NCBI GenBank assembly: GCA_963701185.1
Contig: OY969569.1
Location: 116,392 to 180,391, forward strand
Reading direction: 5' to 3'
Source: Candidatus Gottesmanbacteria bacterium
Lineage (GTDB): Bacteria > Patescibacteriota > Microgenomatia > UBA10105 > UBA927
DNA length: 64,000 nt
In this document: one piece after another, positions 2,938 through 52,405 of the stretch
Layout of the letters: each line of letters begins with the position of its first letter
Position numbering within the stretch: position 1 is the stretch's first letter
Notes under the pieces: generated by a model
Database searches by the model: none
What the model saw: the letters and a program-made list of their open reading frames with translations, nothing else
What the model was told of the DNA's origin: nothing
Program-made: the position numbers and the translations under genes

Positions 2938-2955
2938 TAGTATTAAAGGAGGAAT

Positions 2956-3915: not shown

Positions 3916-3924
3916 GCCTACCAT

Positions 3925-35276: not shown

Positions 35277-36896
35277 ATGTTTTCCAAGACGTTGTTTATA
35301 GGCATTATTGTACTCTCTATTTTTTTCCGGTTTTGGCAACTTGGTACCGTACCTGATGGATTCCATGTCGATGAAGCGTCCGTGGGGTACAACGCGTATT
35401 CGTTGATGAAAACAGGACGGGATGAATCCGGTGTTTTTCTTCCTCTTACGTCGCGGGGCCTGAATGATTTTGGAGGCACCATCGGCTCATATATCACCAT
35501 TCCGTTTATTTATCTTTTCGGTCTTACCCAGTGGGCCGTGCGTGCTCCGACGGCGGTATTCGGCGTTCTGTTCGTACTTTTAACGTATGCGTTTGTATAC
35601 CGCATATCCAACAACCGCAGTGCGGCGCTCCTGTCTATGGCGCTTGCCGCTGTTTCGCCCGTAGGAATATTGCTGTCCAGAGCTCAAAGCGTTCTTGTCG
35701 GTTTCGTTATTTTTTACGGCGCAGCCTATTTGTGGCTTCTGTGGGCCCAAAAGCGGTCTTTTTGGTACCTGGGGTTGTCACTGTTGGGTATTGCGGTAAG
35801 TTTTTACACATATACGGGCATCCGGCTTTTTGCATTGCCTTTTTTATTACTGATGACTGTATGGCATTGGCGCACATTGGACAAACGATTGAGAGTTACC
35901 GCTGCGGCATTTTTTCTGATTATCGCTCTTTTTGTCGCCGGCTTGTTTTTTTCCCCGGCAGGCCGCCGGTTTTCGCAAATTAGCGTTTTTTCGACCCAAA
36001 ATGTCCAGTTGCCCCTGGATGAGGAAATACGTGAAGACGGCGCCCAGCATCAGCCGATACTGGTGACCCGCATGATTCACAATAAAGCGACTGCATACGG
36101 CCGGTTTTTTCTCACAAATTTCACGGATCATTTGAGTTTCCAGTTCTTATTTTTGCAGGCGAGCCAGCCGTTGCGTGAGAAGGTCCCCAACGCGGGAGTA
36201 TTGCTTCTTATTGAAGGCCCGTTTTTGTTGATCGGCATATATACGGTGATCAGGAAAAAATTATCGTACGGGGTATACAGCATTGTGTGGTTTCTGCTGG
36301 TTCCCGCGGTTATGAGCGTGGGAAGCGAAGAAACGCCGAACATTCACAGATTCTTTCTTGCCATGATTCCGGTACATCTTTTGGTGGCATACGGAATTCT
36401 TGCAACCATGCATGCGGTCAAAACAAAATACCGCCGCATACTTGCTTTCGGCCTGATTCTTTTGTTTGCCGTGAATGTCTTTTATTTTCTGCACGAACTA
36501 TTCGTGCACCAGCCGGTGCATGCGCCGATTTACCGGAACGGCGCGGATAAGGAATTAGCCATCTCCATCAGGGATAGGTATAGTTTCTATGACGTGGTCG
36601 TTTCACAGAAGATATTGCCGCATGTCCTCTTTTTTTGGCCGGTTGATCCCGAAACCTATCAGAAAGAAGGATCCCCGAGAGATACTGATTATGCGTGGTA
36701 CCGGAACATATTTTTTGTGGCAGACTCATGTCCGTCGCAGAGGTCCGACCCGGCAATTGCCGCAGTGCGTGCGTCGCGTGTTTTGTATATTGACAGGGCA
36801 GGATGTACCCTTATGAAGGATGATGTCATTATAAAAACCATAAAATATAAAAATACTCTGGATGTGTATTATCTGGTTGAGAAACGGGTGTTATGA
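35277..36896 (+). CDS. GT-C fold glycosyltransferase (PMT/ArnT-like), first of a tandem trio
   Basis: FHVDEASVGYNAYSLMKTGRDESG, AAVSPVGILLSRAQS. Confidence 0.7.
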   Translation: MFSKTLFIGIIVLSIFFRFWQLGTVPDGFHVDEASVGYNAYSLMKTGRDESGVFLPLTSRGLNDFGGTIGSYITIPFIYLFGLTQWAVRAPTAVFGVLFVLLTYAFVYRISNNRSAALLSMALAAVSPVGILLSRAQSVLVGFVIFYGAAYLWLLWAQKRSFWYLGLSLLGIAVSFYTYTGIRLFALPFLLLMTVWHWRTLDKRLRVTAAAFFLIIALFVAGLFFSPAGRRFSQISVFSTQNVQLPLDEEIREDGAQHQPILVTRMIHNKATAYGRFFLTNFTDHLSFQFLFLQASQPLREKVPNAGVLLLIEGPFLLIGIYTVIRKKLSYGVYSIVWFLLVPAVMSVGSEETPNIHRFFLAMIPVHLLVAYGILATMHAVKTKYRRILAFGLILLFAVNVFYFLHELFVHQPVHAPIYRNGADKELAISIRDRYSFYDVVVSQKILPHVLFFWPVDPETYQKEGSPRDTDYAWYRNIFFVADSCPSQRSDPAIAAVRASRVLYIDRAGCTLMKDDVIIKTIKYKNTLDVYYLVEKRVL

Positions 36897-38476
36897 AAAA
36901 AATAGTACTTCTTCTTATCGTTGCCGCGACACTGGTTCTCCGTGTGTATCATGTGACACAGGATCCTCCCGCACTGTCATGGGATGAAGTGTCCATCGGC
37001 TATAACGCATACAGCATCTTGAAAACCGGCCGCGATGAGCACGGGAAATTTTTGCCGTTTGATGCATTTGTCGCCTACGGAGATTACAAGCCTCCGCTTG
37101 CGGTGTATGCGACGGTGCCCTTTGTCGCAATCTTCGGACTCACGGATCTTGCTGTCAGACTGCCGGCTGCATTTTTTGGAACTCTCACGGTATTGTTGAC
37201 GTATTTCTTAGTGAAAGAACTCCTGAAGCGTGACCATTATGCTTTGTTGTCCGCCGCCGTTCTTGCCGTATCGCCGTGGCATATCAATATCTCCCGCGGG
37301 GGATTTGAGGCAAATATCGCGTTGTTTTTTGTCGTGCTGGGGACCTGGCTTGCCTTGTCCGCCGGGTCACATCCGCGCCGGTGGCTGTTTGCATGGCTTC
37401 CCTTCGTTGCCGCCATCTATACATTCAACAGCTCCAGGGTTTTTTCCGTGTTATTTGTGCCCGCATTGCTGGTCTTTCTTTTCCGGGATATTAAAAAGCA
37501 TGTGAGACTATTTATTACCGGCGTTGTTATCGCCGTCCTATGCGCGGCGCCGATCGTGCCGCATTTATTATCTGCCCAGGCGCGCCTCAGGTTTACGGAG
37601 GTAAATATTTTTACCGATCTTTCCGTTGTTGAAACCGCAAACTCCCGTCTTGCCCGGGAGCACGGAAATGTGATCGGTGAACTGGTGAATAACCGGCGGG
37701 TGGGATACGTCCGGAGCTTCCTTATTCATTTTATGGACAACCTTCAGCCGGACTTTTTATTCGTCAAAGGGGACGGGAATCCGAAATTTTCCATTCAGGA
37801 TGTCGGCCAGTTGTATCTTATTGAGGCGCCGTTTCTGGCAGTAGGAATAGCTATGCTCTTTTTATCGAATCCCGGCATTGCAGCACTGCTTATTTGGTGG
37901 ATCATCGCCGCTATTATCCCGGCAGCAACAGCCAGGGAAACTCCCCACGCCTTGAGAATCCTCAATTCGCTTCCCGCGTGGCATATCTTCGTCGCATACG
38001 GGATTCTGTCGATCTACACGTATATCAAAAAAGGCAGGGTTGTTTACGTTTTATTGCTTATAGTCCTCTATCTTTTCAGCATGACCTATTATTTGCACAA
38101 TTATTACCGTCATTATCCGGTTGAGTTTTCCGGAGAATGGCAGTACGGGTACGCGCAGGCGCTCGAGCGTATCGCCCCTATTGCCCAAAACTATGACCGA
38201 GTTGTGATGACGGACAGTATAGGCAGGCCGTACATGTATACGCTTTTTTATACAAAGACGGATCCTGCAGTATACCTGCGGAGCAAAGATTCATATTTCG
38301 ACGCGGAAGGGTTTTATCACGTTAAGGGATTCCTGAAGTATCGTTTCGGGGGGATGCTTCCGGACGAATTTGACGGGAAAACGTTGTATATATGGAATTC
38401 ATTGCCCGAGGGGGCGACACTCCTCGATACGATAAAATTATTAAACGGCAATCCGGTTTTGTATATTTTTATATGA
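36893..38476 (+). CDS. GT-C fold glycosyltransferase (PMT/ArnT-like), tandem trio
   Basis: LSWDEVSIGYNAYSILKTGRDEHG, LAVSPWHINISRGGFEAN. ATGA overlap. Confidence 0.7.
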   Translation: MKKIVLLLIVAATLVLRVYHVTQDPPALSWDEVSIGYNAYSILKTGRDEHGKFLPFDAFVAYGDYKPPLAVYATVPFVAIFGLTDLAVRLPAAFFGTLTVLLTYFLVKELLKRDHYALLSAAVLAVSPWHINISRGGFEANIALFFVVLGTWLALSAGSHPRRWLFAWLPFVAAIYTFNSSRVFSVLFVPALLVFLFRDIKKHVRLFITGVVIAVLCAAPIVPHLLSAQARLRFTEVNIFTDLSVVETANSRLAREHGNVIGELVNNRRVGYVRSFLIHFMDNLQPDFLFVKGDGNPKFSIQDVGQLYLIEAPFLAVGIAMLFLSNPGIAALLIWWIIAAIIPAATARETPHALRILNSLPAWHIFVAYGILSIYTYIKKGRVVYVLLLIVLYLFSMTYYLHNYYRHYPVEFSGEWQYGYAQALERIAPIAQNYDRVVMTDSIGRPYMYTLFYTKTDPAVYLRSKDSYFDAEGFYHVKGFLKYRFGGMLPDEFDGKTLYIWNSLPEGATLLDTIKLLNGNPVLYIFI

Positions 38477-40083
38477 AAAAAACACTTATATTTTTATTTC
38501 TGATTCTTGTTATTGCGGCGGGGTTCCGGTTCTATCAGCTGGGAAGTGTCCCTCCCAGTCCTGATTGGGATGAGGCAGCGCTGGGGTATAACGCATACTC
38601 CATTCTGAAAACCGGCAGGGATGAATACGGAAACTTCCTGCCGTTGTCCATCCGGTCGTTTGATGATTATAAGCCGCCGCTGTACGTATATCTCACGGTG
38701 CCGTCCGTGGCCTTTTTCGGATTGTCCGTATGGTCGACAAGATTCCCTTCGGCTGTCATGGGGCTTGTGGCGGTGCTGGGGACATATTTTCTGGTAAAAG
38801 AATTATTAAAGAATAATGCGCAGGCACTGCTCTCCGCACTCTTATTGGCCATTTCGCCGTGGTCCGTACAGTTTTCCCGCATTGCATTTGAGGCCAATAC
38901 CGGAGTTACCCTGAATATCTGGGCGGTGACGGCATTTCTTGCGGGTCTCAAAAAACGTGTGTTTCTTCCTGTTTCAGCGGTGTTATTTGCGCTCGGGTTT
39001 TATGCATACCACAGTGAGCGGATATTTTTACCGCTGCTTCTTATTATCCTTGCGGTCGTGTACCGCAACCAACTGTTTGTCAAAAAGCACAGGATGTCAT
39101 TGATTGTGAGTATTATCCTCGGTATTCTTGTGGCCGCACCTCTTATACCGGTTGTTTTTAACCGGACGGCGCTTTTGAGGCTGCGCGGGACAAGTTCGTT
39201 CACGGATCAGACGGGGCTCCTGTCCCGCGATATTACGAAACTTGAACAGGATCAACGGGCAGGGGACCGTATCGGTCAGCTTCTGGATAACAGAAGGATC
39301 GTATTTGTTAAAACCGTTGCCGCAGGATATCTCTCGCATTTCTCGCCGAAATGGCTGTTTTTAACGGGTGATAACCAGCGGCACCATGCTCCGGATATGG
39401 GGCTTTTATACCTCTGGGAGCTGCCGTTTCTGATGTACGGAATATACAGGGTGTTGAAGTATGGAAAAGGTCAGGTAAGCGCTGTTCTTATCGGGTGGCT
39501 CCTTATTGCGCCGGTTGCCGCATCTCCCACGACGGGTTTGCCGCATGCCGTCCGCACACTTGTTTTTCTGCCGGTTTTTCAGATATTTACAGCGGTAGGA
39601 TTAGCACATGTTCTTGTCCGACGAAAATTTCTCATGTCGCTGTACGGCATATGTATCGTTTTTAATCTTTTCTATTACTGTGATATGTATTTCGTTCAAA
39701 TGAATCCGGAGGTTTCTGAATACTGGCAGTACGGATACAAAGATGCGGTGGCGTTTACCGAAAAAGTCAAAACCAAATACCAAAAAATTGTCGTGTCCAC
39801 GACACTGGAACAATCCTATATGTTTTTCCTTTTTTACACGAAGTACGATCCGGCAAAGTATCTGGCCGCCGGAGGGACGCAGTCGGGGAGTTTTGAAGAG
39901 GCCAAGAATCATTTCGACAACTATGAATTCAGGAAAATCGATTGGCCCCGGGAACGGAGAGATGGTACGATTCTCTATGTCGGCGATCCTAAAGACATGC
40001 CGCACGGGAATGTGAGGAACTTTACCTTTTTGGACGGTAAACCGGCAATAGAAATGGCCGACCGGCCCAACGGAGCCCTATGA
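38473..40083 (+). CDS. GT-C fold glycosyltransferase (PMT/ArnT-like), tandem trio
   Basis: PDWDEAALGYNAYSILKTGRDEYG, LAISPWSVQFSRIAFEAN. Start at ATG 38473 overlapping the previous stop (ATGA). Confidence 0.7.
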   Translation: MKKTLIFLFLILVIAAGFRFYQLGSVPPSPDWDEAALGYNAYSILKTGRDEYGNFLPLSIRSFDDYKPPLYVYLTVPSVAFFGLSVWSTRFPSAVMGLVAVLGTYFLVKELLKNNAQALLSALLLAISPWSVQFSRIAFEANTGVTLNIWAVTAFLAGLKKRVFLPVSAVLFALGFYAYHSERIFLPLLLIILAVVYRNQLFVKKHRMSLIVSIILGILVAAPLIPVVFNRTALLRLRGTSSFTDQTGLLSRDITKLEQDQRAGDRIGQLLDNRRIVFVKTVAAGYLSHFSPKWLFLTGDNQRHHAPDMGLLYLWELPFLMYGIYRVLKYGKGQVSAVLIGWLLIAPVAASPTTGLPHAVRTLVFLPVFQIFTAVGLAHVLVRRKFLMSLYGICIVFNLFYYCDMYFVQMNPEVSEYWQYGYKDAVAFTEKVKTKYQKIVVSTTLEQSYMFFLFYTKYDPAKYLAAGGTQSGSFEEAKNHFDNYEFRKIDWPRERRDGTILYVGDPKDMPHGNVRNFTFLDGKPAIEMADRPNGAL

Positions 40084-41603
40084 AGAAAAAATTTATTGTT
40101 CCCATTACTATTATCGTTTTTATCTGGGGGATAGCGCTTCGTGCGATAGAGGTAGTCAACGGAAATTATCTTTTCGGATTTGACCAGGGTCGCGATTATC
40201 TGGCTGCCTACAATATCCTCGTCGGTCATAAATTTACCCTCATCGGCGCGGAAGTCGGGGCAGGGGCCGCAGGATTGTCGCATCTGTTCCATGGTCCCGG
40301 ATATTATTATCTTATTGCACTCATGGAACTTATGTTTCGGGGAGATCCGTACGGCGGTTTACTTCTTATGTTCTTTTTTGGCGTTTTGGCGCTTTTGGCT
40401 GTTTTTATTACAACGCGAAAAATGTTCGGTCAGGCCGTTATGCTCGTCACGTTGTTGTTATTGGGTATTTCACCGCTTATTGTTTCTCAGTCGCGGTTCA
40501 TGTGGAATCACCACCCGTCCACATTTTTCATCGTTATTGCATTGTACTTTGCATACATGATTACGAAAAAGCCGCGGATATATGCGCCGCTTGCGGTGTT
40601 TACTGCGGGCTTTATCTATCACTTTGAGCTTGCCATCGCCGTACCGTTTGTGATCGCGCTTGTTCTGGCACTCCCTCTGGTATTCCGCATAAAGGACGTA
40701 CGGACATATGTGTACAGCGTAATCGCCGGTGTGGCGGCGTTTTTTCCGTTTCTTTTATTTGAATCTCGGCACGGGTGGATGGCGATCCGTTCTCTTCTGG
40801 TATATACGACACCCCAGGGACCCGTAGGGAAAGACGTATGGTACCTGCGCATCATCGATCATATGGGTCCGTATATTAACAGCGCCGCAAATTCGTTTCC
40901 GAATGAGCAGGGATTGCTGCCGTTCTATTTTTATAAAGGTCTCTCGCTTGCGCTGGTTGTCGTCCTTATTATGTTGGCCTGGAGAGTGAAGGATAAACTG
41001 CACAGGAAGTTTTTCCGGTTTCTGCTGCTTTTGACGGCCGCTACGTACGGCGTGATGCTGCTTCTCGAGAACATGATTTGGGATTACTATCTTATTCATA
41101 TACACGTCGTATTCATATACATATTTGCATATAGCCTGATACGCAGTTTCCGCATGCTTAGGAAATCATTGTGGTCGCTTTTTGCTTTCGGCGCATTGAG
41201 TATTTTTCTCGTATCCATGATTTCAGCCTCTGCCTGGCGCATGAAAATAAGCTACACATACGATCTTCATGATTTCGGGGGTGTTGAAAAAATTAAAGGG
41301 AAGAAGGCCGCGATTGATTACGTATATCATGATGCAAAAGGTCAGCCGTTTTCAGAATTTACTTTTATGGCGCCTATTTATACGTACCCGTACGATTATC
41401 TGTTTACAACCTATGGGAAACAGGCCTATGGCTACGTGCCGGGGCGTGAGAAAAAAGGGCTTGTGTATCTCATTATCGAGCCGGACGCCTCCAAACCATG
41501 GACGTACAAAGGATGGCTGGAGACGGTTATTGTCGGGGGAGATATTATCAATACCGCTACCATTTCGGCCGGACAAATCATACAGAAGCGAATATTTCCA
41601 TGA
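40080..41603 (+). CDS. GT-C fold glycosyltransferase ('FGFDQGRD' subfamily, intact paralogue of 5031)
   Basis: NYLFGFDQGRDYLAAYNIL, GPGYYYLIAL. 507 aa polytopic protein. Confidence 0.6.
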   Translation: MKKKFIVPITIIVFIWGIALRAIEVVNGNYLFGFDQGRDYLAAYNILVGHKFTLIGAEVGAGAAGLSHLFHGPGYYYLIALMELMFRGDPYGGLLLMFFFGVLALLAVFITTRKMFGQAVMLVTLLLLGISPLIVSQSRFMWNHHPSTFFIVIALYFAYMITKKPRIYAPLAVFTAGFIYHFELAIAVPFVIALVLALPLVFRIKDVRTYVYSVIAGVAAFFPFLLFESRHGWMAIRSLLVYTTPQGPVGKDVWYLRIIDHMGPYINSAANSFPNEQGLLPFYFYKGLSLALVVVLIMLAWRVKDKLHRKFFRFLLLLTAATYGVMLLLENMIWDYYLIHIHVVFIYIFAYSLIRSFRMLRKSLWSLFAFGALSIFLVSMISASAWRMKISYTYDLHDFGGVEKIKGKKAAIDYVYHDAKGQPFSEFTFMAPIYTYPYDYLFTTYGKQAYGYVPGREKKGLVYLIIEPDASKPWTYKGWLETVIVGGDIINTATISAGQIIQKRIFP

Positions 41604-41633
41604 AAAAAATACTGAAGAGTCCGTTTTTTCTGG

Positions 41634-43205
41634 GTGCTTATTTTTTCATTATTGCCGCTTGCTTCACTATTTCATATAGGGTTGCCCGCGACGCATGACG
41701 GACAGGACCACGTAGCCAGAATTGCCAATTTTTACCGGTCGCTGGCAGAAGGGAATATCATTCCCCGGTGGGCGGGGTCTCTCAATTGGGGCTACGGACA
41801 TCCGATCCTCATGTTTTTATATCCGCTGCCGTCGTACATTGCATCTTTTTTTCATGCTCTGGGCCTTTCATTTGTTGACAGTACGAAGCTCGTGTTCGGG
41901 GTAGCCCTCATTGCCAGCGGACTGACGATGTATATGTGGATGAATGCTGCCTTTGGAAAAAAGGCGGGCATTGTCGGGGCGCTTTTGTATGTTTTTGCGC
42001 CGTACCGGTTTGTGGATTTATATGTGCGGGGTGCCATAGGGGAGCATGTGGCATTTATTTTTCCGCCGCTCGTACTGTATTTTCTCCGGAGACATTCCAT
42101 AATCGGCGTTTCATTTTCCCTTGCCGCGCTTATTCTTTCCCATAACGCCATAGCCATTATGTTCCTGCCGATTATAGGACTGTATGCTTTTTATCTTTTA
42201 CTATTTGAAGTGAAAAATAGGTGGTCGTTTATAGTTTATTGCTTATTGTCCGTCGTATTGGGTTTTGCCCTGTCCGCTTTCTTCTGGATACCCGCGTATT
42301 TTGAGGGTAAGTATACGCTTCGGGATATTGTTACGGCAGGAGATGTCGTGAAACGGTTTGTGCCCTGGTCATGGTTTCTGTATTCGCCGTGGAATTACGG
42401 ACTGGGTGAAACGATGTCAAAGTCATTGGGATTGATGCAGTGGTTTGGAGTTGCTGCCGCGATCTGGGCAATATGGAAGACGAAACAAAAAAACATACGG
42501 ATTCTGCTTGTATCCTTTTTGATAATTTTACTCGGATCATTATTTATTATGACCTCGGGGTCGCGGCCCCTGTGGATTGCCGTTACGATTTTGCAAAAGT
42601 TCCAATTTCCATGGCGCTTTCTTTCAGTATCGGTATTTGCCGCGTCAGCACTGGGAGGAATAGCATGTAGCCGGGCAAAAAAAGCATTCATTATTCCTTA
42701 TTCATTATTCATTATTCTGATTTCCGTCGGTATGTGGCACCCGAAAGCGTATATTTTCCATGATGAATCTTTTTATTCCGGCGTCTATGCCGGGACAACC
42801 GATACCGGTGAGAGCAGTCCGATCTGGTCGGTCCGATTTATGGAACATACCGCCCCGGCTCCGCTTGAGGTTATAGACGGTTCGGCGGTGATAACTGACG
42901 GCTTCCGTTCATCGACGGCGCATGAATATACGGTACAGGCCGCCAAACCTACACTCCTTCTTGAAAATACCGTGTATTTTCCTGACTGGAATGTATATGT
43001 AGACAAAACGGTTATCCCTATTGAGTACCAGAATCCGAATTACAGAGGGTTAATTACGTTTCAGGTTGCGGCAGGAACCCATAGCGTCCGGGTAGTATTT
43101 GAAAATACGAAGTTGCGCACTGTAGCCGAGAGGATTTCGCTCGCCGCTCTTGCTATAATCGCAGTGTCAGGTGTGGTACCTATCTTATGGCGGAAAAGAA
43201 CGTAA
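41634..43205 (+). CDS. Polytopic membrane protein, 'HD...GYGYP' family. The N-terminus is possibly disrupted; an upstream ATG at 41600 is in another frame
   Basis: PATHDGQDHVARIANF..EGNIIPRW..GYGHPILMFLYPLPSY. Carries in-frame repeat copy A at 42226-42251 (VYCLLS). See the finding on the T6 tract at 41642-41647. Confidence 0.55.
   Translation: MLIFSLLPLASLFHIGLPATHDGQDHVARIANFYRSLAEGNIIPRWAGSLNWGYGHPILMFLYPLPSYIASFFHALGLSFVDSTKLVFGVALIASGLTMYMWMNAAFGKKAGIVGALLYVFAPYRFVDLYVRGAIGEHVAFIFPPLVLYFLRRHSIIGVSFSLAALILSHNAIAIMFLPIIGLYAFYLLLFEVKNRWSFIVYCLLSVVLGFALSAFFWIPAYFEGKYTLRDIVTAGDVVKRFVPWSWFLYSPWNYGLGETMSKSLGLMQWFGVAAAIWAIWKTKQKNIRILLVSFLIILLGSLFIMTSGSRPLWIAVTILQKFQFPWRFLSVSVFAASALGGIACSRAKKAFIIPYSLFIILISVGMWHPKAYIFHDESFYSGVYAGTTDTGESSPIWSVRFMEHTAPAPLEVIDGSAVITDGFRSSTAHEYTVQAAKPTLLLENTVYFPDWNVYVDKTVIPIEYQNPNYRGLITFQVAAGTHSVRVVFENTKLRTVAERISLAALAIIAVSGVVPILWRKRT
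42226..42251 (+). repeat. Copy A of the dispersed 'GTTTATTGCTTATTGTCC' repeat (in-frame inside the 41634 gene)
   Basis: Exact 18-mer at 42234-42251, encoding VYCLLS. Flank cgtttata resembles the extended consensus GATTAyTG. Confidence 0.9.
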
Positions 43206-43957
43206 AACTTTCGGTCGCAATTGCCGTTTATAACGAAGAGAAAAATATCGAAGCGTGCCTCGCGTCGGTCCGCGGTTTGGCCGACGAAATCATTGTGGTG
43301 GACGGCGGATCAGGCGACCGCACGGTTTCCCTTGCCCGCGCATTTGGTTCCCGCATCATAGAGACGGATAATCCGCCGATGTTTCATTTAAATAAGCAAA
43401 AAGCACTGGATGCCTGCTCGGGGAGCTGGATACTTCAGCTTGATGCCGATGAACGGGTGACTCCCGCATTAAACAAAGAAATACGTTCGGTTATCAATGC
43501 CGGGTCGTCCGACGTTAACGGCTACTTTATCCCGCGGAAGAATTATTTTTGGGGACATTGGATGCGTAAAGGCGGGCAGTATCCGGATTATGTCATGCGG
43601 CTTGTGCGCCGCGGCAAGGCTCATTTTCCCGCCAAAAGCGTCCATGAACAAATTGATGTCATCGGTGAACCGGGGTACCTCACGGAGCCGATGGATCATA
43701 TTTCCTACCGGACCCGCGAAGATTATTGGAGGAAGGCGGAGAGTTATACAACGCTTGCCGCCATGGAAATGAAAAGAGACGGAGTCGGCAAAAACCCGTG
43801 GACGTGGTTTACCTACAATATTATAAAGCCGCAAATGACATTCCTTTCGTTGCTTATCCGTCATAAGGGATTTATGGACGGTTGGTACGGGTTGGTATTT
43901 GCCTACTTTTCCGCCCTGCATTTTCCGATTACGTATAAAAAATTCCTAAAGTTATGA
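43187..43957 (+). CDS. GT2 glycosyltransferase (paralogue of 15482 and 17256)
   Basis: LSVAIAVYNEEKNI...DEIIVVDGGSGDRT...LQLDADERV. Confidence 0.8.
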   Translation: MAEKNVKLSVAIAVYNEEKNIEACLASVRGLADEIIVVDGGSGDRTVSLARAFGSRIIETDNPPMFHLNKQKALDACSGSWILQLDADERVTPALNKEIRSVINAGSSDVNGYFIPRKNYFWGHWMRKGGQYPDYVMRLVRRGKAHFPAKSVHEQIDVIGEPGYLTEPMDHISYRTREDYWRKAESYTTLAAMEMKRDGVGKNPWTWFTYNIIKPQMTFLSLLIRHKGFMDGWYGLVFAYFSALHFPITYKKFLKL

Positions 43958-44493
43958 AAAAGAAAGTGATCATCTTGTTGATTACTGTTTATTGCTTATT
44001 GTCCACTGTTTCTTCAGTTTATGCCGACTATGTTCTTCCGTACCCGTCCTACATGCCTGGAAATAAACTATACCGGCTCACGAGGATTGTTGATCAATTA
44101 AAAAAGTATTGGTATCGGGGCAACATTGCGCAGACGAAGTATCACCTTGCATTGTCGGATAAGTATCTGGTCGAGGCGAGTACCCTCATGGAATATAAGC
44201 AGTACCTTCTCGGAGCTGATGCGCTGCGGAGATCCGATGCGGAGTTTGCGACGCTACCGGCATACGTTGCCGGCGCCAAAAAAGAAGGAGTCGACGTGCA
44301 TGAGCTGCAGCTTCTTCTTGCGGCTGCAGCCGGGAAACACAGGGAAGTATTAACCGGGCTTCTCCCCGTTGTCCCGCCGGACTTTACCTGGACTCCGGAG
44401 AAATCCAAGCCGACGGCGCTGCCTTTAAGCGACATAATCTCAGCATCAGTTGGTATTAGACAACGTATTGCCAGTGCAACAGGATCCCTATAA
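43954..44493 (+). CDS. Secreted hypothetical protein (signal peptide, 179 aa)
   Basis: MKKKVIILLITVYCLLSTVSSVYA|DY is an Sec-type signal peptide. The mature part is helical and Ala-rich, with no recognised domain. The h-region of the signal peptide is encoded by repeat copy B. Confidence 0.55.
   Translation: MKKKVIILLITVYCLLSTVSSVYADYVLPYPSYMPGNKLYRLTRIVDQLKKYWYRGNIAQTKYHLALSDKYLVEASTLMEYKQYLLGADALRRSDAEFATLPAYVAGAKKEGVDVHELQLLLAAAAGKHREVLTGLLPVVPPDFTWTPEKSKPTALPLSDIISASVGIRQRIASATGSL
43980..44005 (+). repeat. Copy B of the dispersed repeat (26 nt, GATTACTGTTTATTGCTTATTGTCCA)
   Basis: Matches the right inverted repeat of the 50850-51286 cassette at 25/26 positions. Encodes LITVYCLLS of the signal peptide. 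Confidence 0.9.
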
Positions 44494-44495
44494 TC

Positions 44496-45578
44496 ATGGC
44501 ACTCATCGCAGTGTTACTATTTTTAGCGGCAATAGGCATCGTAGGAGTTTTTTCCTACGGGTTTATTGATCCGAATTTGGTTTTATCCGCACACGTCATG
44601 TTTTCCCGGATTGCGGACCGGCCGGCGGCGGCCGTCATATTTTTCGTTATCCTTCTTGTTCTGTTTGCCGCGTACCTGTATTTTCTGAAGCACCCGCCGA
44701 AGTTTTGGGTGATACTGGCGGCGGCCGTCATGCTGGTTTTCTCGTATCCGGCTCTTACCTATGACGTATTCAACTACATCGCTACTGCCAAAGTTACATA
44801 TACATACCATGAAAACCCGTATATCATCATGCCGGTCGAGATCCCGAACGAACCCAATCTGGCATTTACAAGGGCGGCAAATAAAACAGCACTGTACGGG
44901 CCTGTGTGGATCGCATTGAGCGCCGTCCCGCATTATCTGGGGATGGGCAGCGTATGGCAGACAATCATTGCATTTAAGGCCATGAATTTGGCTGCGTATC
45001 TGGGGTTTTGTTATCTCATATACCGGGTCACTAAGAAGACGGCGAATGTTATTTTTTTTGCCGCCAATCCGCTGGTTTTGATAGAAGTGCTTATGAACGG
45101 ACATAATGACATTTACATGATGCTTGCGGCACTCGGAGGCCTGTTGTTGTGGCGTCAAAACAGGAAAGTCAGCGGATTTTTACTCTTCGCTGTTTCATGG
45201 CTGGTAAAGGGCGCGACCATAGTTCTTCTCCCGCTGTTATTTTTGAAAAATATATCAACGGAACGTCTTCTTCTCATTGCTTATTGCTTATTGTCCTTCG
45301 TTTTTTTTGTTATTGCCCCGGTCCGTGAAGAACTCTATCCATGGTATGCAGTCTGGCTTATTGCATCCGCGTCGCTGTTGCCTCTGAAGAACCACCGGTT
45401 CATATTCGGATTCACTGTCGTATTGTCTTTTGCGCTGGAGCTGCGTGCACTCCCGTATATGTGGATGGGATATTATGAAGGACCGGGACCGGCGCTTCGG
45501 CTGATACTCACTCTTGTTCCCGTTGTTGTGTATGCAGCATATACCGGGTTCCGGTATGTCTCTCAAAGAAAAACATGA
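44496..45578 (+). CDS. Polytopic membrane protein, putative GT-C-like (paralogue of 7258..8415)
   Basis: SYPALTYDVFNYIATAKVTYTYHENPY. Contains repeat copy C as an apparent 6-codon insertion relative to 7258. Confidence 0.5.
   Translation: MALIAVLLFLAAIGIVGVFSYGFIDPNLVLSAHVMFSRIADRPAAAVIFFVILLVLFAAYLYFLKHPPKFWVILAAAVMLVFSYPALTYDVFNYIATAKVTYTYHENPYIIMPVEIPNEPNLAFTRAANKTALYGPVWIALSAVPHYLGMGSVWQTIIAFKAMNLAAYLGFCYLIYRVTKKTANVIFFAANPLVLIEVLMNGHNDIYMMLAALGGLLLWRQNRKVSGFLLFAVSWLVKGATIVLLPLLFLKNISTERLLLIAYCLLSFVFFVIAPVREELYPWYAVWLIASASLLPLKNHRFIFGFTVVLSFALELRALPYMWMGYYEGPGPALRLILTLVPVVVYAAYTGFRYVSQRKT
45279..45296 (+). repeat. Copy C of the dispersed repeat (GCTTATTGCTTATTGTCC, 17/18)
   Basis: Encodes AYCLLS. 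Immediately followed by a T8 homopolymer (45300-45307). Confidence 0.85.
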
Positions 45579-48836: not shown

Positions 48837-50065
48837 TTAACAATAGCCTTGCCAGAAACAGCGCGATTGTTTTTGCCGGATCCATGGCGGCTAACGTTCT
48901 GGCGTATGTGTATCACCTGCTGATGGGCAGACTTCTGGGCCCGGCAGGATACGGGGAGTTTTCTTCACTCGTGTCGATATTTTATATATTTTCCGTTCCC
49001 CTTGTCGTCGCTTCGACGGTGCTTGTAAAGTTTATTTCCGGATTTAAGGCCCGTCATGCAATCGGTCAGGCAAAATCTCTTTTCTGGAGCGTGACAAAAT
49101 TAGTTTTCGTCATTTCTCTTATCGGACTGCCGGTTATGCTGGGAGCCGCGCCGTGGATCACATCGTTTTTGCATTTATCGTCAGGGGTGTTATTTATGCT
49201 GGTATATCTGACATTCGTCATGTCGCTCCTTTCGATTGCGCCGGCCAGCATGCTTCAGGGGTATCAGCGTTTTGTCTGGGTAAGCGTATTCGCGGTATTC
49301 ATGGTTGCGGTAAAAATACTTTTTAGTGTGCCGATGGCCGCATGGGGAGTATATGGAGTGCTGTCGGCTGCCGCCATCGCCGCAGCCGTTACGTATCTTC
49401 TCTATTATATTCCGCTTGGTTTTATATTAAAGGCAAAAAGTGAGAAAAGCACTGTCAGTAAGCGTGATGCATTCCGGTTTGCAGTCCCGACATTGTTGAT
49501 TCAGCTGGGCATGACATCTTTGTATACGACCGATATCATTCTTGTCAGACATTTTTTCCCCGCAGCGGAGGCCGGATTATATGCCGCACTCGCAATTCTG
49601 GGGAAAATTATATTTTATGCATCAAGCTCGGTTTCTCTTGTTCTTTTTCCCGTTTTGTCAGAACGTACGGAGACAGGTGCGGCGACAAAAAAGCTTACGG
49701 CATCAGCTGTCGGCGGCGTCACTGCGGTTTCCGCCGGAGTCACCGCATTATATTTTCTTTTTCCTGACTTTATTGTAGGATCTCTGTTCGGCAACGCGTA
49801 CGCGGGAGCGGGAAGTTTCCTGGGATTGTTCGGCGTATTTCTTGCATTGTTTTCAGTGGGGAGCATTATCGTGACGGCGTGTTTAGCGTTGGGACGAACC
49901 GGCGTGTGGTTCGTGCCGGTCACCTGTGCTATTCTGCAGATTGCCGGTATAGCCGTTTGGCATGAGAGTATCGGAACAGTCATCAATCTGAATATAGGCG
50001 TCTGTACCCTGTATGTTTTGGGATCTGCCGTCTATTACCTGAAAGTCACGTATGCGAAAATTTAG
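48803..50065 (+). CDS. MOP-superfamily flippase (Wzx-like)
   Basis: 420 aa with about 12 TM helices. N-terminal LINNSLARNSAIVFAGSMAANVLAYVYHLLMGRLLGPAGYGEF resembles Wzx N-termini. Confidence 0.6.
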   Translation: MDTYKISFRKLINNSLARNSAIVFAGSMAANVLAYVYHLLMGRLLGPAGYGEFSSLVSIFYIFSVPLVVASTVLVKFISGFKARHAIGQAKSLFWSVTKLVFVISLIGLPVMLGAAPWITSFLHLSSGVLFMLVYLTFVMSLLSIAPASMLQGYQRFVWVSVFAVFMVAVKILFSVPMAAWGVYGVLSAAAIAAAVTYLLYYIPLGFILKAKSEKSTVSKRDAFRFAVPTLLIQLGMTSLYTTDIILVRHFFPAAEAGLYAALAILGKIIFYASSSVSLVLFPVLSERTETGAATKKLTASAVGGVTAVSAGVTALYFLFPDFIVGSLFGNAYAGAGSFLGLFGVFLALFSVGSIIVTACLALGRTGVWFVPVTCAILQIAGIAVWHESIGTVINLNIGVCTLYVLGSAVYYLKVTYAKI

Positions 50066-50843
50066 CTTAATTATTCCTGTATATAAACAGCAGCAGACCA
50101 TTAAACGCGACATTGAGGACGTCATCTCCGTGCTTTCAACAGCAAAGATTGATTTTGAGATTATCCCGGTCATCGACGGGCAGCTGGACCGCAGTTTTCA
50201 GGAGGCCGGTAAAGTGAAAGACAAACGGGTCCGTGTGGTGGGGTATCAGACGAATCACGGAAAAGGGTATGCCGTCCGGTACGGATTTTCCCAGGCCACG
50301 GGAGACGTGATCGGATTTAAAGACGCAGGGCGGGATTTGAAGCCCGATGCGCTGCCTCTTATGATAGCGGAATTTGATTTTCAACACGCAGATATTGTTA
50401 TCGGCAGTAAAAGGCACCCTGGTTCGAAAGTGGAGTATCCGTTCATCCGAAAAATTCTGTCATGGGTATATCAAAAATTTACTAAACTGCTGTTCGGCCT
50501 GGAAGTCAGGGATACACAGGTTGGAATGAAACTATACAGACGTAAAGTGTTGGAAGATGTATTGCCGAGATTACTTGTGAAGCAATTCGCATTTGACATA
50601 GAGATACTGGCCGTTGCATATCACCTGGGGTACCGAAAAATTTACGAAGCGCCGGTTGAGATAGACTTTTTTTCTGCAAAATCAAGTATTGTTTGGAGCA
50701 AGCTCATACGGATCGTTCTTAATATGCTTCGGGACACGCTTGCCGTGTATTACCGGCTTTACATACTCCGTTATTACGATGATGCGAGCAAACGGAAGTG
50801 GCGGTTCGATCCGGAGTTGAACTTTAGAATTAACATAGGGTAA
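50052..50843 (+). CDS. GT2 glycosyltransferase
   Basis: FSLIIPVYKQQQTI...IIPVIDGQLDRS...VIGFKDAG. Cytosolic GT2 core. Confidence 0.75.
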   Translation: MRKFSLIIPVYKQQQTIKRDIEDVISVLSTAKIDFEIIPVIDGQLDRSFQEAGKVKDKRVRVVGYQTNHGKGYAVRYGFSQATGDVIGFKDAGRDLKPDALPLMIAEFDFQHADIVIGSKRHPGSKVEYPFIRKILSWVYQKFTKLLFGLEVRDTQVGMKLYRRKVLEDVLPRLLVKQFAFDIEILAVAYHLGYRKIYEAPVEIDFFSAKSSIVWSKLIRIVLNMLRDTLAVYYRLYILRYYDDASKRKWRFDPELNFRINIG

Positions 50844-50849
50844 AGAAAC

Positions 50850-51286
50850 GGACAATAATCATTAATCAATAATCGAAAAACGGTATGGATGATGCTAGGA
50901 TTGGTCCAATAAATGATCTACTTTTTGCAAAGGCAGATGATTTGGCTCAATTTATTTACGAATTAACCTATTCATTTCCAAAGGAAGAATTGTTCGGAAT
51001 TACGTCACAGCTAAGACGCGCAGTTTTATCATTACCGCTAAATATTACTGAAGGATATGCGCGGAGAAGCGATCAGGATTATCGTAGATTTCTTGATATA
51101 GCATATGGGTCGTTAAAAGAAGTAAAATATCTTTTATATTTTTGTAAACAAAGAAAAATAATTTCATCTGACAATTATGAAAAACATATGAAAATAGCAG
51201 ACGAATTAGGAGGACTATTATGGAAGAAAATATCTACGTTGCGAAGTAAAGTAACGAAATAGATTATTGTTTATTGCTTATTGTCC
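50850..51286 (+). mobile_element. Inverted-repeat-bounded mini-cassette carrying a four-helix-bundle (23S rRNA IVS-protein family) gene
   Basis: Left IR 50850-50875 GGACAATAATCATTAATCAATAATCG. Right IR 51261-51286 AGATTATTGTTTATTGCTTATTGTCC, whose reverse complement matches the left IR at 22/26. The enclosed ORF is visibly AT-richer than the flanks. No target-site duplication is evident. Confidence 0.55.
50885..51262 (+). CDS. Four-helix-bundle protein (23S rRNA-intervening-sequence protein family)
   Basis: 125 aa. LTYSFPKEELFGITSQLRRAVLSLPLNITEGYARRS..DYRRFLDIAYGSLKEVKYLL matches the conserved F...E...L.SQLRRA..S...NI.EG..R.....F..IA.GSL.E..Y.L signature of this family. Confidence 0.8.
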   Translation: MDDARIGPINDLLFAKADDLAQFIYELTYSFPKEELFGITSQLRRAVLSLPLNITEGYARRSDQDYRRFLDIAYGSLKEVKYLLYFCKQRKIISSDNYEKHMKIADELGGLLWKKISTLRSKVTK

Positions 51287-51289
51287 ATC

Positions 51290-52405
51290 ATGAGGATATT
51301 AATTTTAAATTGGCGGGACGTCAGTCACCCCAAATCCGGCGGTGCGGAGCATGTGACGATGGAGCATGCAAAAGCGTGGGTGAGGGCGGGACACACCGTC
51401 ACGTGGCTGACCAGTCATTATGGCCGTGCGAAGCATGAAAGCACCGTAGATGGCGTGAATTTTGTCCGCCGTGCGGGGTCGCTGACGATCTACCTGTATG
51501 CACCGCTGTATCTTATGCGAAATGCGCACTCATTTGACGTGATTGTTGATGAAGCACACGGATTTCCGTTTTTTTCCCCGTTATTTACCCGAAAGCCGGT
51601 TGTGATTTTTATTCATGAAATTGCGGGGGAAATATGGGATTACATGTTTTCCTTCCCCAAAAACGTTATCGGAAAGTTGCTGGAGCGCTGGTATTTCCGG
51701 GTATATACGCATTGTTTGTTCTGGACCGATGCGCCGTCAACCGCAGAAGAAATTTCCTATCGGGGAATTCCTGTGAGCCAATGCGTTGCGATTCCCTGCC
51801 CGATTATAAAAAGTTCAAAGTTTAAAGTTCAAAGTTCTACTAAAGAACAACATCCCACATATCTTTTCGTCTCCCGCGTGGTGCGCATGAAAGGCGTGGA
51901 GGAGGTTATAAAAGCGTTTTCATTTATTGCCAGAGAACGGCCCGACAGCACATTGTGGATTGTCGGCGGCGGGGAGCCGGGATATATTGCGGAACTTGAT
52001 GATATGACAAAGGAATACGGTGTGAAAAACCGTGTGATGTTTCTCGGGACGCTTTCCGAAAAAGAGAAATATGAACGTATGAGCCGTGCGCATCTCTTGC
52101 TGCACGCATCGGTGAAAGAAGGATGGGGGCTTGTCGTCCTGGAGGCGGCATCGGTCGGTACGCCGGCAGTCGTGTATAACGTCAGCGGGTTAAATAGCGT
52201 GGTGAAAGACGGGGAGACCGGTATTGTGTGTAAGGAAAACTCTCCGCGGGAAATGGCCCGTGAGGCGATGATGCTATACAACAATAAAACGACATACCGC
52301 AAATATCAGGAGAACGGACGTTCATGGGCAAAAAGTTTTCACTGGTCGGATGCAGTCAAACAAAGTCTTTCATTGCTGAAACGGGCAACTTACCGTACTT
52401 CATAA
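51290..52405 (+). CDS. GT4 glycosyltransferase
   Basis: MRILILNWRDVSHPKSGGAEHV. C-terminal EGWGLVVLEAASVGTPAVVYNVSG. ATG 51290 is 3 nt after the right IR. Confidence 0.85.
   Translation: MRILILNWRDVSHPKSGGAEHVTMEHAKAWVRAGHTVTWLTSHYGRAKHESTVDGVNFVRRAGSLTIYLYAPLYLMRNAHSFDVIVDEAHGFPFFSPLFTRKPVVIFIHEIAGEIWDYMFSFPKNVIGKLLERWYFRVYTHCLFWTDAPSTAEEISYRGIPVSQCVAIPCPIIKSSKFKVQSSTKEQHPTYLFVSRVVRMKGVEEVIKAFSFIARERPDSTLWIVGGGEPGYIAELDDMTKEYGVKNRVMFLGTLSEKEKYERMSRAHLLLHASVKEGWGLVVLEAASVGTPAVVYNVSGLNSVVKDGETGIVCKENSPREMAREAMMLYNNKTTYRKYQENGRSWAKSFHWSDAVKQSLSLLKRATYRTS

Follow-up and report, generated by a model that had tools for sequence, protein, structure and literature searches.

Rickettsia palindromic elements (RPE) are palindromes of roughly 100–150 bp, and rRNA intervening sequences encoding PF05635 proteins occur in Leptospira and Coxiella. 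PF05635-encoding intervening sequences are also present in rRNA genes of the candidate phyla radiation (CPR) (PMC11270868), and the accessory protein Avd of diversity-generating retroelements is homologous to PF05635 (PMC10053308). Heptanucleotide repeats are found in contingency loci based on simple sequence repeats, such as the repeat of neuO and the 7-bp repeats of hmw in H. influenzae (PMC13001214, PMC2651432, PMC8262952); neuO encodes the capsule O-acetyltransferase of E. coli K1 and is ON when its repeat count is divisible by three (PMC13001214).

The window, that is the whole 64-kb stretch of DNA analysed, derives from an uncultured groundwater bacterium of the CPR lineage Candidatus Gottesmanbacteria. 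The 18-mer GTTTATTGCTTATTGTCC was found exactly on the forward strand at 42234–42251, 43987–44004 and 51269–51286, and with one mismatch (17/18) at 45279–45296 (+), so that the four copies listed in an initial annotation were confirmed by search. Two matches absent from that list were detected at 38049–38066 (+; two mismatches, 16/18) and at 50850–50867 (−; three mismatches, 15/18), the latter being the left arm of a PF05635 cassette. These six matches compare with 0.16 expected from shuffles of the window, in agreement with the earlier view that the family is not a product of chance. The 13-mer core TTAYTGYTTAYTG gave nine matches versus 0.71 expected, every one within 38–51.3 kb, and no module was found in the 36 kb upstream, which contain similar GT-C genes. 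The 26-mers at 43980–44005 and 51262–51287 are identical at 25 of 26 positions, as had been reported for the copy in the signal peptide and the right inverted repeat. The independent assembly L113 (Logan ERR10755943) is 100% identical to positions 39817–44134 except for one T, and therefore the copies at 42234 (copy A) and 43987 (copy B) are not assembly artefacts; the presence/absence polymorphism envisaged for an inserted sequence was not seen between L113 and the window.

Translation in ORF coordinates gave VYCLLS for the 42234 and 43987 copies and AYCLLS for the 45279 copy (copy C). Three of the four in-gene copies conform to the claim that the reading is invariably (V/A)YCLLS; the exception is that at 38049, which is read in another frame as VLLLIV. 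The 51269 copy is intergenic, with the ATG of a GT4 gene 3 nt further on.

The 18-mer corresponds to 2.5 heptanucleotide units and is the 3′ part of a module of heptanucleotides repeated in tandem and closed by a fixed end, (TTAYTGY)2–4-TCC, the complement of which is GGACA-(RCARTAA)n; in 5/5 direct copies three heptamers are followed by TCC. The degenerate copy at 38042–38067 (+; GTTTACG TTTTATT GCTTATA GTCC) lies in a PMT_2 (GT-C) gene (36893–38476), where its frame VLLLIVL begins a hydrophobic helix preceded by a KKGR loop. Copy A (site 1; 42227–42252, +; GTTTATA GTTTATT GCTTATT GTCC, 3.5 heptamer units plus TCC) is translated as FIVYCLLS at the start of a transmembrane helix encoded by a PTPS_related/YfhO-like GT-C gene (the 41634 gene), and the same gene carries at 42686–42717 (+) a second site, (ATTCATT)x4.6, giving FIIPYSLFII. 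Copy B (43980–44005, +; GATTACT GTTTATT GCTTATT GTCC) encodes part of the hydrophobic signal-peptide core of a secreted protein (179 aa), and copy C (45272–45297, +; TCTCATT GCTTATT GCTTATT GTCC) encodes LLLIAYCLLS in a GT87/MptA_B-like GT-C gene (the 44496 gene). The T8 tract described as directly following copy C begins 4 nt past it. In addition, a hydrophilic stretch of the GT4 protein, KSSKFKVQSS, is encoded by the heptamer tract (AAAGTTC)x4 at 51810–51837 (+). Rather than an insertion, the 18-mer represents a brief stretch of a tandem repeat with a 7-base unit. The module is an element of the DNA rather than of the peptide, since one copy is intergenic and the PMT site is read in three frames across genomes.

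The window copies take the place of existing sequence without adding or removing bases, where hydrophobic helices start and, in one case, in a signal peptide, and the observation of the initial annotation that in-gene copies stand where their translation is hydrophobic was upheld. No gap was present at copy A in an alignment of 53 sequences (no indel against 52 orthologous loci), and the segment of the 41634 gene that holds it, among the most variable parts of its protein family, measures 58–60 residues from anchor to anchor in 50/53 orthologous sequences. A perfect period-7 run of at least nine positions was detected at site 1 in 13 of these 53 sequences, and perfect runs of any other period from 3 to 12 in none. 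In the 44496 gene the segment comprises 25 residues in orthologues with and without the tract alike, and the copy C tract is found at the same place in the related loci L022, L031 and L066. The syntenic locus L022 (75% protein identity) has tracts at the positions orthologous to 38049, 42234 and 45279, so that the same tract occupies the same position in an orthologue, which runs against the insertion or excision footprint of 18–27 bp originally proposed, as does the lack of an indel at the copies in the orthologue alignments. The L022 copies differ from those of the window at 1–3 sites, all synonymous; their codon identity is 3/6 and 5/6, similar to that of the flanks (45–57%). The six-residue excess of the 44496 protein over its paralogue (7240–8415), taken as the product of an 18-bp insertion, does exist, but as two three-residue gaps between proteins only 31% identical, and the orthologues showed the length difference to be unrelated to the repeat. 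No inverted partner was found near any solo copy.

The units themselves change between relatives. At site 2, TTAYTGC (AYCLLS) stands in place of ATTCATT in relatives, e.g., at 11096 in L022; the signal-peptide site contains GTCATTG x4 (L029), TTTTTTG x5 (L066), TCTGTTA (L035) or TACGTTA (L064); and the PMT site has four units in L022 and the module in two other frames in L035 and L042. Different units at one site were thus seen in the PTPS_related gene, the signal peptide and the PMT gene. In L049, a (TGTGTCA)x4 tract is accompanied by an additional 18 nt. These positions appear to be hot-spots for heptanucleotide tracts throughout the lineage.

In the related loci L022–L082, 85 period-7 tracts were counted against 1–12 for each other period from 4 to 13 (108 versus 4–20 when exact runs were counted); across about 0.7 Mb, tracts of period 7 outnumber those of other periods by a factor of 6–20, and long ORFs contain 82 of 94 tracts. 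Contigs L104–L107 and L108–L112 are 99.2% identical over 5 kb, and their sole gap is an addition of 21 nt (three units) in the site-1 tract. A concerted change is seen in L042 and L049, which differ at 13 of 30 tract positions, with flanks 96% identical and length unchanged, one of the two tracts being a perfect (TTGGTGC)x4.5; in L030 and L064 the boundary between C-type and T-type units is displaced. The tracts were shown to shift in a register of 7 or 21 nt by misalignment, through replication slippage or unequal pairing. Two tracts share the same unit about three times as often within a locus as between loci, both in direct (11.8% versus 3.8% of pairs) and in inverted orientation (6.9% versus 2.1%). 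No allele frameshifted at a tract was found, including among the nine contigs of the polymorphic population; a frame-switch scan of period-7 tracts flagged five sites, all of them gene junctions. A role in frame switching therefore remains a proposal.

The kinship of the copies with the inverted repeat of the PF05635 cassette, noted previously, was corroborated. The left arm (50848–50876, +; ACGGACAATAATCATTAATCAATAATCGA) is the module complement, GGACA followed by (CAATAAT)x3, and the right arm (51262–51287, +; GATTATT GTTTATT GCTTATT GTCC) ends 3 nt before the GT4 ATG at 51290. The arms pair with each other in the MFE and centroid folds alike, and the hairpin loop contains a gene for a 125-aa protein (50885–51262, +; E 3.5e-31) of the PF05635 family, known as 23S rRNA intervening-sequence protein or four-helix bundle and Avd-like. 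Its 1553 homologues are mostly on short contigs, many of Patescibacteria. Neither an Rfam match nor, in the 64-kb window, a reverse transcriptase gene was found. In Gottesmanbacteria, intergenic hairpins are found whose inverted arms consist of this module family, with or without a PF05635 gene in the loop. Cassettes 74–85% identical, flanked on each side by up to three of the same modules, including the exact 18-mer, are present in L064, L124 and L125, and the cassette family occupies three different junctions (window/L064, L124, L125). L124 and L035 have the right arm at the same position before the GT4 start without the PF05635 gene, and empty hairpins of the same modules were found in L124 (at the exact junction of the window's cassette), L035 and L016, with folding z-scores of −3.1 to −6.3. 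The cassette arms of L022, built of GGTTCTT/AACCAGG units, are unrelated to those of the window, and solo copies of this arm family occur within a nearby gene and within a spacer. L022 repeats independently the pattern of cassette arms and in-gene copies. Its in-gene copy sits in a hydrophilic loop eight residues longer than in the window, and resembles the insertion model, but in another genome.

We consider it somewhat probable that the modules belong to a repeat family prone to slippage, whose copies in the cassette arms and in adjacent genes are kept alike by homogenisation and are tolerated in places where they specify hydrophobic residues. The modules and their complements build long inverted hairpin arms between genes, with the PF05635 gene optional in the loop, and the same modules also lie within neighbouring genes of the surface-glycosylation island; tracts vary by slippage or unequal pairing in the 7-nt or 21-nt register, and short-patch exchange between copies of one genome may keep them alike, the cassette arm included. 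By the genetic code, all three frames of (TTATTGC)n are cyclic permutations of LLLIAYC, and any frame of a T-rich heptamer run yields Leu, Ile, Val, Phe, Tyr or Cys, so that hydrophobic segments would be the only places where copies are retained, and loops rich in Lys, Asn and Gln the only ones for their A-rich complements. The copies inside genes would then have no function of their own and be tolerated as the by-product of a repeat family that propagates itself and is prone to slippage; the consequence would be heptad-step (7-residue), potentially on/off, variation in surface glycosyltransferases. Exchange between dispersed copies we infer solely from their identity: three exact 18-mers are present in the window, whereas orthologous copies differ at 1–3 sites. 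A length of 18–26 nt is at the lower limit for homologous recombination, and no conversion tract was observed directly. Simple slippage does not account for the length-neutral takeover of a segment by a tract, and the fact that many lineages carry tracts at the same sites could point to selection for them instead of mere tolerance.

Such selection is central to the reading of the tracts as contingency loci, in which a shift by one unit in either direction would change the frame and switch surface glycosyltransferases and the secreted protein off or on, and three-unit steps would tune helix length. In its favour, the unit length is not a multiple of three, the ORFs that contain the tracts encode surface-glycan enzymes, populations that are nearly identical differ in copy number, and the same sites have retained tracts through long divergence, their repeats remaining perfect, which requires ongoing slippage; there is also the precedent of the 5′-AAGACTC-3′ heptanucleotide repeat of neuO (PMC13001214), and the PTPS_related gene with the site-1 tract has a T5/T6 frameshift polymorphism at its 5′ end. 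We nevertheless regard this reading as unlikely, given the open ORFs and the missing frameshifted alleles, by contrast with neuO, which is OFF in 66% of genomes (PMC13001214). Moreover, the tracts are short (2.5–5 units versus 3–53 in neuO) and mostly in mid-gene rather than at the 5′ end, the window copies have merely 2.5–3.5 imperfect units, and the sole polymorphism seen is in frame. Other lineages have quite different units, or none, at the same sites, and the single left arm in the window faces five right-type copies 5–13 kb away; these facts, with the absence of an Rfam match, make it quite improbable that the module is a putative cis-acting recognition sequence in DNA or polycistronic mRNA, kept identical by co-evolution with a candidate partner such as the PF05635 protein, RNase III or the complementary left arm. 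Consistent with that idea are the greater likeness of copies within one genome than between orthologues, a fixed TGTCC/GGACA end unexpected for a plain microsatellite, arms folding to long stems around an ORF like 23S rRNA intervening sequences, the z-scores of the empty hairpins, a right arm adjoining the GT4 start codon in three genomes, and complementary tract pairs within operons, e.g., (ACAGATA)5 and (TCTGTTA)3.4 of L035, 490 nt apart.

The insertion in frame of a short mobile sequence or excision footprint into unrelated genes, although it would explain the 18–26 nt common to copies and cassette terminal repeat and agrees with the mobility of cassettes among three junctions, the longer loop of L022 and the additional nucleotides of L049, is very unlikely: the copies at 42234 and 45279 show no indel against orthologues, tracts occupy orthologous positions in three loci, target duplications and inverted partners are lacking, and L113 has the same copies. 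For the membrane-protein copies of the window it was ruled out by the shared tract position and unchanged length in orthologues; what stands of the initial annotation is a non-chance DNA-level family related to the cassette, not its origin by insertion or as a footprint. Least credible of all is convergence on (V/A)YCLLS as a selected membrane motif, with nucleotide identity due to codon bias. The window and L022 do keep the peptide with synonymous changes, and xAY(C/W)LL(A/S) occurs in the tract-less GT87-like orthologues L024 and L062. However, this reading is contradicted by the identical intergenic copy and by the other frames of the 38049 copy and the PMT-site copies of L035 and L042; the heptamer periodicity runs past the hexapeptide, the segment is highly variable within its family, and three copies are identical although conservation of synonymous codons at this divergence is only about 50%.

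Compared with known systems, the family resembles RPE in occurring intergenically as well as in frame inside unrelated ORFs, and in being, like selfish repeats, tolerated where the encoded peptide is harmless (PMC1166351); unlike RPE, which lengthen the host protein, the window copies of 18–26 nt add no residues, and single copies are not palindromic. With REP/REPIN/BIME elements it shares modules of about 25 nt, inverted pairs and intergenic hairpins, often several in a row (PMC3116915, PMC3337134), a location between genes of an operon, and, as for REP/REPIN with RAYT transposases, a small single-copy gene flanked by its own repeat family. That gene encodes a PF05635 four-helix bundle and not a tyrosine transposase, and the modules differ from REP/REPIN in their internal heptamer periodicity and in having copies within coding sequence. 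As in 23S/16S rRNA intervening sequences, inverted repeats form a stem around a PF05635 ORF, but the present element stands in a glycosylation island, with protein-coding genes on either side; modular heptamer repeats make up its arms, and relatives have empty hairpins at the same junction. As in diversity-generating retroelements, an Avd-like gene adjoins a repeat with a copy inside target genes, where it substitutes sequence with length unchanged; unlike them, the 64 kb are without a reverse transcriptase, the copies are of 18–26 nt rather than about 100 nt, and differences between copies are not adenine-specific.

As in the contingency loci neuO and hmw, tandem 7-nt units lie inside ORFs of surface-glycan-modifying enzymes, and, as in neuO-type loci, slippage changes copy number, with in-frame states three units (seven residues) apart. 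Unlike those loci, no OFF alleles were seen here, the tracts are short (2.5–8 units), in mid-gene and in transmembrane or signal segments, and relatives differ in the sequence of the unit but have conserved tract position and length; in a further difference, copies in unrelated genes share their unit and the fixed TGTCC end with the arms of intergenic hairpins.

Exact matches to the 18-mer GTTTATTGCTTATTGTCC were found on the + strand of the window at 42234, 43987 and 51269, together with inexact copies at 45279 (+ strand, one mismatch), 38049 (+ strand, two mismatches) and 50850 (− strand, three mismatches), against 0.16 matches expected from shuffled sequence; the repeat family recognized in the initial annotation was therefore borne out. 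The 51269 copy is intergenic, and the extended similarity of the copies beginning at 43980 and 51262 comprised 25 of 26 nt. The reading (V/A)YCLLS, formerly ascribed to all in-gene copies, held for those at 42234, 43987 and 45279 (VYCLLS/AYCLLS) but not for that at 38049, which is read in another frame (VLLLIV). Every copy was composed of three tandem heptamers followed by TCC (e.g., GATTATT GTTTATT GCTTATT GTCC), so that the 18-mer corresponds to 2.5 heptanucleotide units with a fixed end. The left arm of the cassette described below is the complement of this module (GGACAATAAT CATTAAT CAATAAT). The search for copies covered the window plus related loci of ~20 kb. In addition, a scan of the GTDB representatives, to which the source genome does not belong, gave 21 singletons of the exact 18-mer, most of which match by chance within coding sequence, e.g., as FIAYCPE in HicB-like genes. 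Two extra heptamer tracts were present in the window, (ATTCATT)×4.6 at 42686–42717 in the same gene as the 42234 copy and (AAAGTTC)×4 at 51810–51837 within the GT4 gene.

The copies at 42234 and 43987 are not assembly artefacts, since an independent assembly (L113, Logan ERR10755943) was identical to the window over 39817–44134 bar one T. This T concerns the PTPS_related gene, which begins at ATG 41600 (MKKILKSPFF...) and is frameshifted in the window by one extra T (T6 at 41619–41624), for which reason the ORF was called from GTG 41634 (523 aa). With T5 at this place, L113 encodes the complete protein of 534 aa, and the rest of the 4317 nt compared is 100% identical; the T5/T6 difference reflects a sequencing error or else an on/off polymorphism of the homopolymer.

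The in-gene copies had been interpreted as a short insertion sequence or excision footprint, and for the window copies this mechanism is refuted. An insertion lengthens its host gene, but no gap was found at 42234 or 45279, the length of the host segment being constant with or without the tract. Alignment of the protein of the 41634 gene with 21 orthologues revealed no gap at FIVYCLLSVVLGF, and in 50 of 53 orthologous DNA segments the anchor-to-anchor distance was 58–60 codons. The corresponding segment of the GT87-like gene (44496) measured 25 codons whether the orthologue carries the tract (L022, L031, L066) or lacks it (e.g., L024, L062). The six residues by which this protein exceeds its paralogue, adduced earlier for an 18-bp insertion, are therefore unrelated to the repeat; orthologues lacking the tract equal the window protein in length, and the paralogue is 31% identical. 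Furthermore, the same tract at orthologous positions of relatives, a pattern that the initial annotation had set against insertion, was found in L022, a syntenic locus with 75% protein identity, at the places of 38049, 42234 and 45279 (GTTTACTGCTTATTGTCC, GTTTACTGTTTACTGTCC and GCTTACTGCTTATTGTCC, respectively), with synonymous differences only from the window. Instead of being missing from orthologous sites of relatives, the tract was present in L022, L031 and L066. No presence/absence polymorphism was seen in L113, which is identical to the window, and no inverted partner or target-site duplication lay beside the solo copies, the sole inverted copy in the 64 kb being the left arm of the cassette. 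The window copies are heptanucleotide repeat modules, not insertions; for annotation, insertion is not a necessary conclusion when unrelated membrane proteins share a short identical stretch of DNA.

A survey of 72 related loci from metagenomes, with 724 kb in the tract count, showed 85 period-7 tandem repeats versus 1–12 tracts at any one of the other periods between 4 and 13; the 34 tracts of period 14 represented the same arrays as period 7. Counted as exact runs, period 7 reached 108 versus 4–20 for other periods, and 82 of 94 tracts were located within long ORFs. Two classes were distinguished: units rich in T are located where hydrophobic helices begin after Lys/Arg-rich loops, and units rich in A occur in N-terminal tails and in loops rich in Lys/Asn/Gln. 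At the position of the 42234 copy, an uninterrupted period-7 run of at least nine positions occurred in 13 of 53 orthologous sequences, in none of which the other periods between 3 and 12 gave a run of this length. The units at this position varied (TGTTTAC, ACTTTTC, CTTTCTG, TTGGTGC, TCTACTA, TTATTCA and others), as did those in the signal peptide that hosts the 43987 copy (GTCATTG, TTTTTTG, TCTGTTA or TACGTTA in relatives), and at the 38049 position in the PMT_2 gene a TTATTG module was read in three frames (window and L022, L035, and L042). Differing units at shared sites and one module in three frames indicate that the element acts at the DNA level. The tract sites are lineage-wide hot-spots. 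All three frames of (TTATTGC)n are cyclic permutations of LLLIAYC, which accounts for the confinement of the copies to hydrophobic segments. One possible reason for the preference for period 7 is that three units make a heptad and keep the helix phase.

Tracts inside one locus shared a unit three times as often as tracts of different loci, in both orientations. In L035, (ACAGATA)×5 at 11901–11936 in the middle of a GT2 gene and its exact complement (TCTGTTA)×3.4 at 12425–12448, 490 nt further downstream within the signal peptide of the following gene, could potentially form a long-range stem in one transcript. In L066 (12840–12870, 17176–17205), the signal-peptide coding region of a small secreted protein contained TGTCCCATGCTCATTGTCTTATGTCC, which approximates, with a 7-nt length difference, the reverse complement of a GGACA... 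module that lies between genes, 4.4 kb downstream. The same in-gene sequence was present in L030. Within five codons at the start of this gene, in sequence that is nearly identical, A8...T7 in L030 stood against A7...T8 in L066, the two changes in homopolymer length cancelling each other.

Over its full length, the window forms an island of surface-glycosylation genes: some twenty membrane glycosyltransferases of the GT-C type (PMT_2, YfhO, PTPS_related, GT87) are accompanied by GT2 and GT4 enzymes, by flippases and by enzymes for sugar nucleotides, and the named homologues belong to Candidatus Gottesmanbacteria (Microgenomates group, candidate phyla radiation, CPR). Between a GT2 and a GT4 gene of this island, the ORF 50885–51262 encodes a PF05635 "23S rRNA intervening sequence" protein, which is an Avd relative of the four-helix-bundle type, and according to fold prediction the arms at 50848–50876 and 51262–51287 pair as a stem around it. 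The cassette is the border between a conserved and a variable block of the island; just past it (about 50000–51300, on to 64000) the G+C content fell from about 0.48 to 0.40–0.44, and synteny with L022 ended there.

The proposed link of the in-gene copies to the cassette repeat was upheld and extended. Cassettes whose proteins are 74–85% identical to that of the window were flanked by the same module family, with a (CAATAAA)n left arm in L064 and three modules per side, one with the exact 18-mer, in L124; L125 was similar. The L124 cassette (85% aa identity) is located one gene earlier than in the window, and the occurrence of related cassettes at differing gene junctions shows that they move. 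At the GT2b|GT4 junction, which is that of the window's cassette, L124 has an empty hairpin of 170 nt with three modules (z = −6.25); like the window's right arm, the last module is separated from the GT4 start by 3 nt. The L124 features described here span 2430–3020 and 3825–3996. Similar empty hairpins were found in L035 and L016, and neither cassette nor hairpin after GT2b in L050 and L033. Mobile PF05635 cassettes and empty hairpins thus have arms built from one module family. The cassette of L022 is of a different subfamily, its arms being unrelated and built of GGTTCTT/AACCAGG units, and solo copies of this arm family were found in the same locus in a PMT_2 loop, 8 residues longer than that of the window, and in a spacer. 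The co-occurrence of the cassette-arm family with in-gene copies nearby was therefore seen twice, with different sequences.

No Rfam family matched the window or the cassette, and no relative of the cassette protein was found in viral contigs. In the entries L014 (~3640–3676), L020 and L011 (2426–2528), a perfect 36-nt palindrome GGACAATAAGCAATAAA/GTTTATTGCTTATTGTCC (z = −6.7) was observed in two Firmicutes MAGs, as well as a 67-nt (ATTGTTK)n + (TATTCAT)4 array upstream of a gene on a contig assigned to Prevotellaceae; this may mean that the module family is not confined to CPR, or else that these contigs were binned wrongly. L049 contained a 149-nt MITE-like insertion at 1339–1487 with 19-nt terminal inverted repeats (CAGGTAGTGAATTTTCGAC), missing from the 91%-identical L042.

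Tracts were seen to change in steps of 21 nt as well as through concerted substitution. Near-identical groundwater populations (L104–L107 versus L108–L112; 99.2% identity over 5 kb) represented two allele classes, the single gap between them being 21 nt (three heptamer units) in the tract at the position of the 42234 copy, which adds the seven residues YFILNTL. L042 and L049 are 81–91% identical overall; at the same site, 72 nt at 96% identity were followed by 30 positions of which 13 differed, the tract length being equal and one tract a perfect (TTGGTGC)×4.5, the other degenerate. Birth and loss of tracts were seen in the PMT gene, where each of the two had a four-unit tract missing from the other, one of them associated with +18 nt. 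No repeat-number variation was detected at the window's own copies by comparison with L113 (n = 1). Special conservation of orthologous tracts was rejected, as the synonymous divergence between window and L022 tracts equals that of the flanks; identical exact copies within the window despite this divergence point to homogenization within the genome.

Some candidates for changes at tracts were rejected. The split gene of L095 is due to a G>T nonsense change and not to a repeat slip: in this other population the orthologous GT-C gene is cut just after the site of the 42234 copy, with a C>A change 31 nt on (3655–3700), and these changes could be a real pseudogene or low-coverage errors. In L097, a 14-nt "deletion" borders on a scaffold gap at a place with no tract, and a 7-residue length difference in one protein cluster was merely alternative start calling. 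The P0015 population series (L095–L103) says nothing on slippage since it contains no heptamer tracts.

The homogenization is probably due to exchange of sequence among copies of one genome by short-patch conversion or template switching, copies presumably persisting only where all frames are tolerated. The tracts might, alternatively, be contingency loci with a selected switching role. Such a role is possible, with neuO as a precedent, and the variation in repeat number among close genomes expected of such loci was found in L104–L112 (+3 units). However, the key signature, OFF alleles, is missing: a frame-change scan flagged five sites, all of them gene junctions, and no frameshifted allele was present among the nine contigs of the polymorphic population. 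It is also conceivable, and to our judgement rather unlikely, that the PF05635 cassettes and empty hairpins are REPIN-like mobile DNA of CPR bacteria whose arm modules are actively copied into neighbouring surface-glycosylation genes, replacing sequence in membrane helices and being inserted in loops, and seed slippage-prone tracts that vary the encoded enzymes by 7-residue steps or switch them off. If true, an intergenic repeat family would here colonize genes by copy-and-replace, a route not described before.

CPR bacteria are uncultured and episymbiotic and possess many GT-C glycosyltransferases. If the heptanucleotide module pattern is genome-wide, they would have a hypermutable class of heptanucleotide tracts in the genes that build the cell surface, a possible source of surface variation in a group for which the literature searched gave no phase-variation mechanism; nothing relevant was found there on heptanucleotide repeats or phase variation in CPR/Patescibacteria, nor any description of heptanucleotide tracts in CPR genes. 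The very common and so far functionless PF05635 genes would gain a concrete genomic behaviour, being mobile between gene junctions inside modular hairpins with empty counterparts, which makes their role testable. The modules would also illustrate neatly how the genetic code can determine the survival of a repeat family inside genes, since a T-rich heptamer is hydrophobic in every frame.

Like simple sequence repeat (SSR) contingency loci, the modules are tandem repeats inside ORFs with a unit length that is no multiple of 3, but OFF (out-of-frame) alleles were not found at the tracts (scan; 0/9 contigs). Diversity-generating retroelements, considered since PF05635 is Avd-like, differ in that no reverse transcriptase was found in the protein domain scans of the window and that the copies differ by T/C and G/T, not at adenines; mutagenic homing of this type was rejected for the missing reverse transcriptase, the shortness of the copies and the lack of adenine bias. 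As in REP/REPIN systems (PMC3116915), inverted pairs of a short module form an intergenic hairpin, but the flanked gene is PF05635 and not a RAYT (IS200/IS605-type) transposase, and no transposase domain was detected among the 40 window proteins scanned. Unlike the in-gene palindromic elements of Rickettsia (PMC1166351), the window copies add no peptide segment, a possible single case of such an in-frame element being the +8 residues in L022. The ORF is enclosed by an inverted-repeat stem, as in rRNA intervening sequences with a PF05635 ORF (PMC11270868), but the cassette lies outside a 23S/16S rRNA helix, no rRNA genes having been found in the window. The system thus mixes features of SSR contingency loci, REP/REPIN, Rickettsia elements and rRNA intervening sequences, and lacks a feature that defines each.
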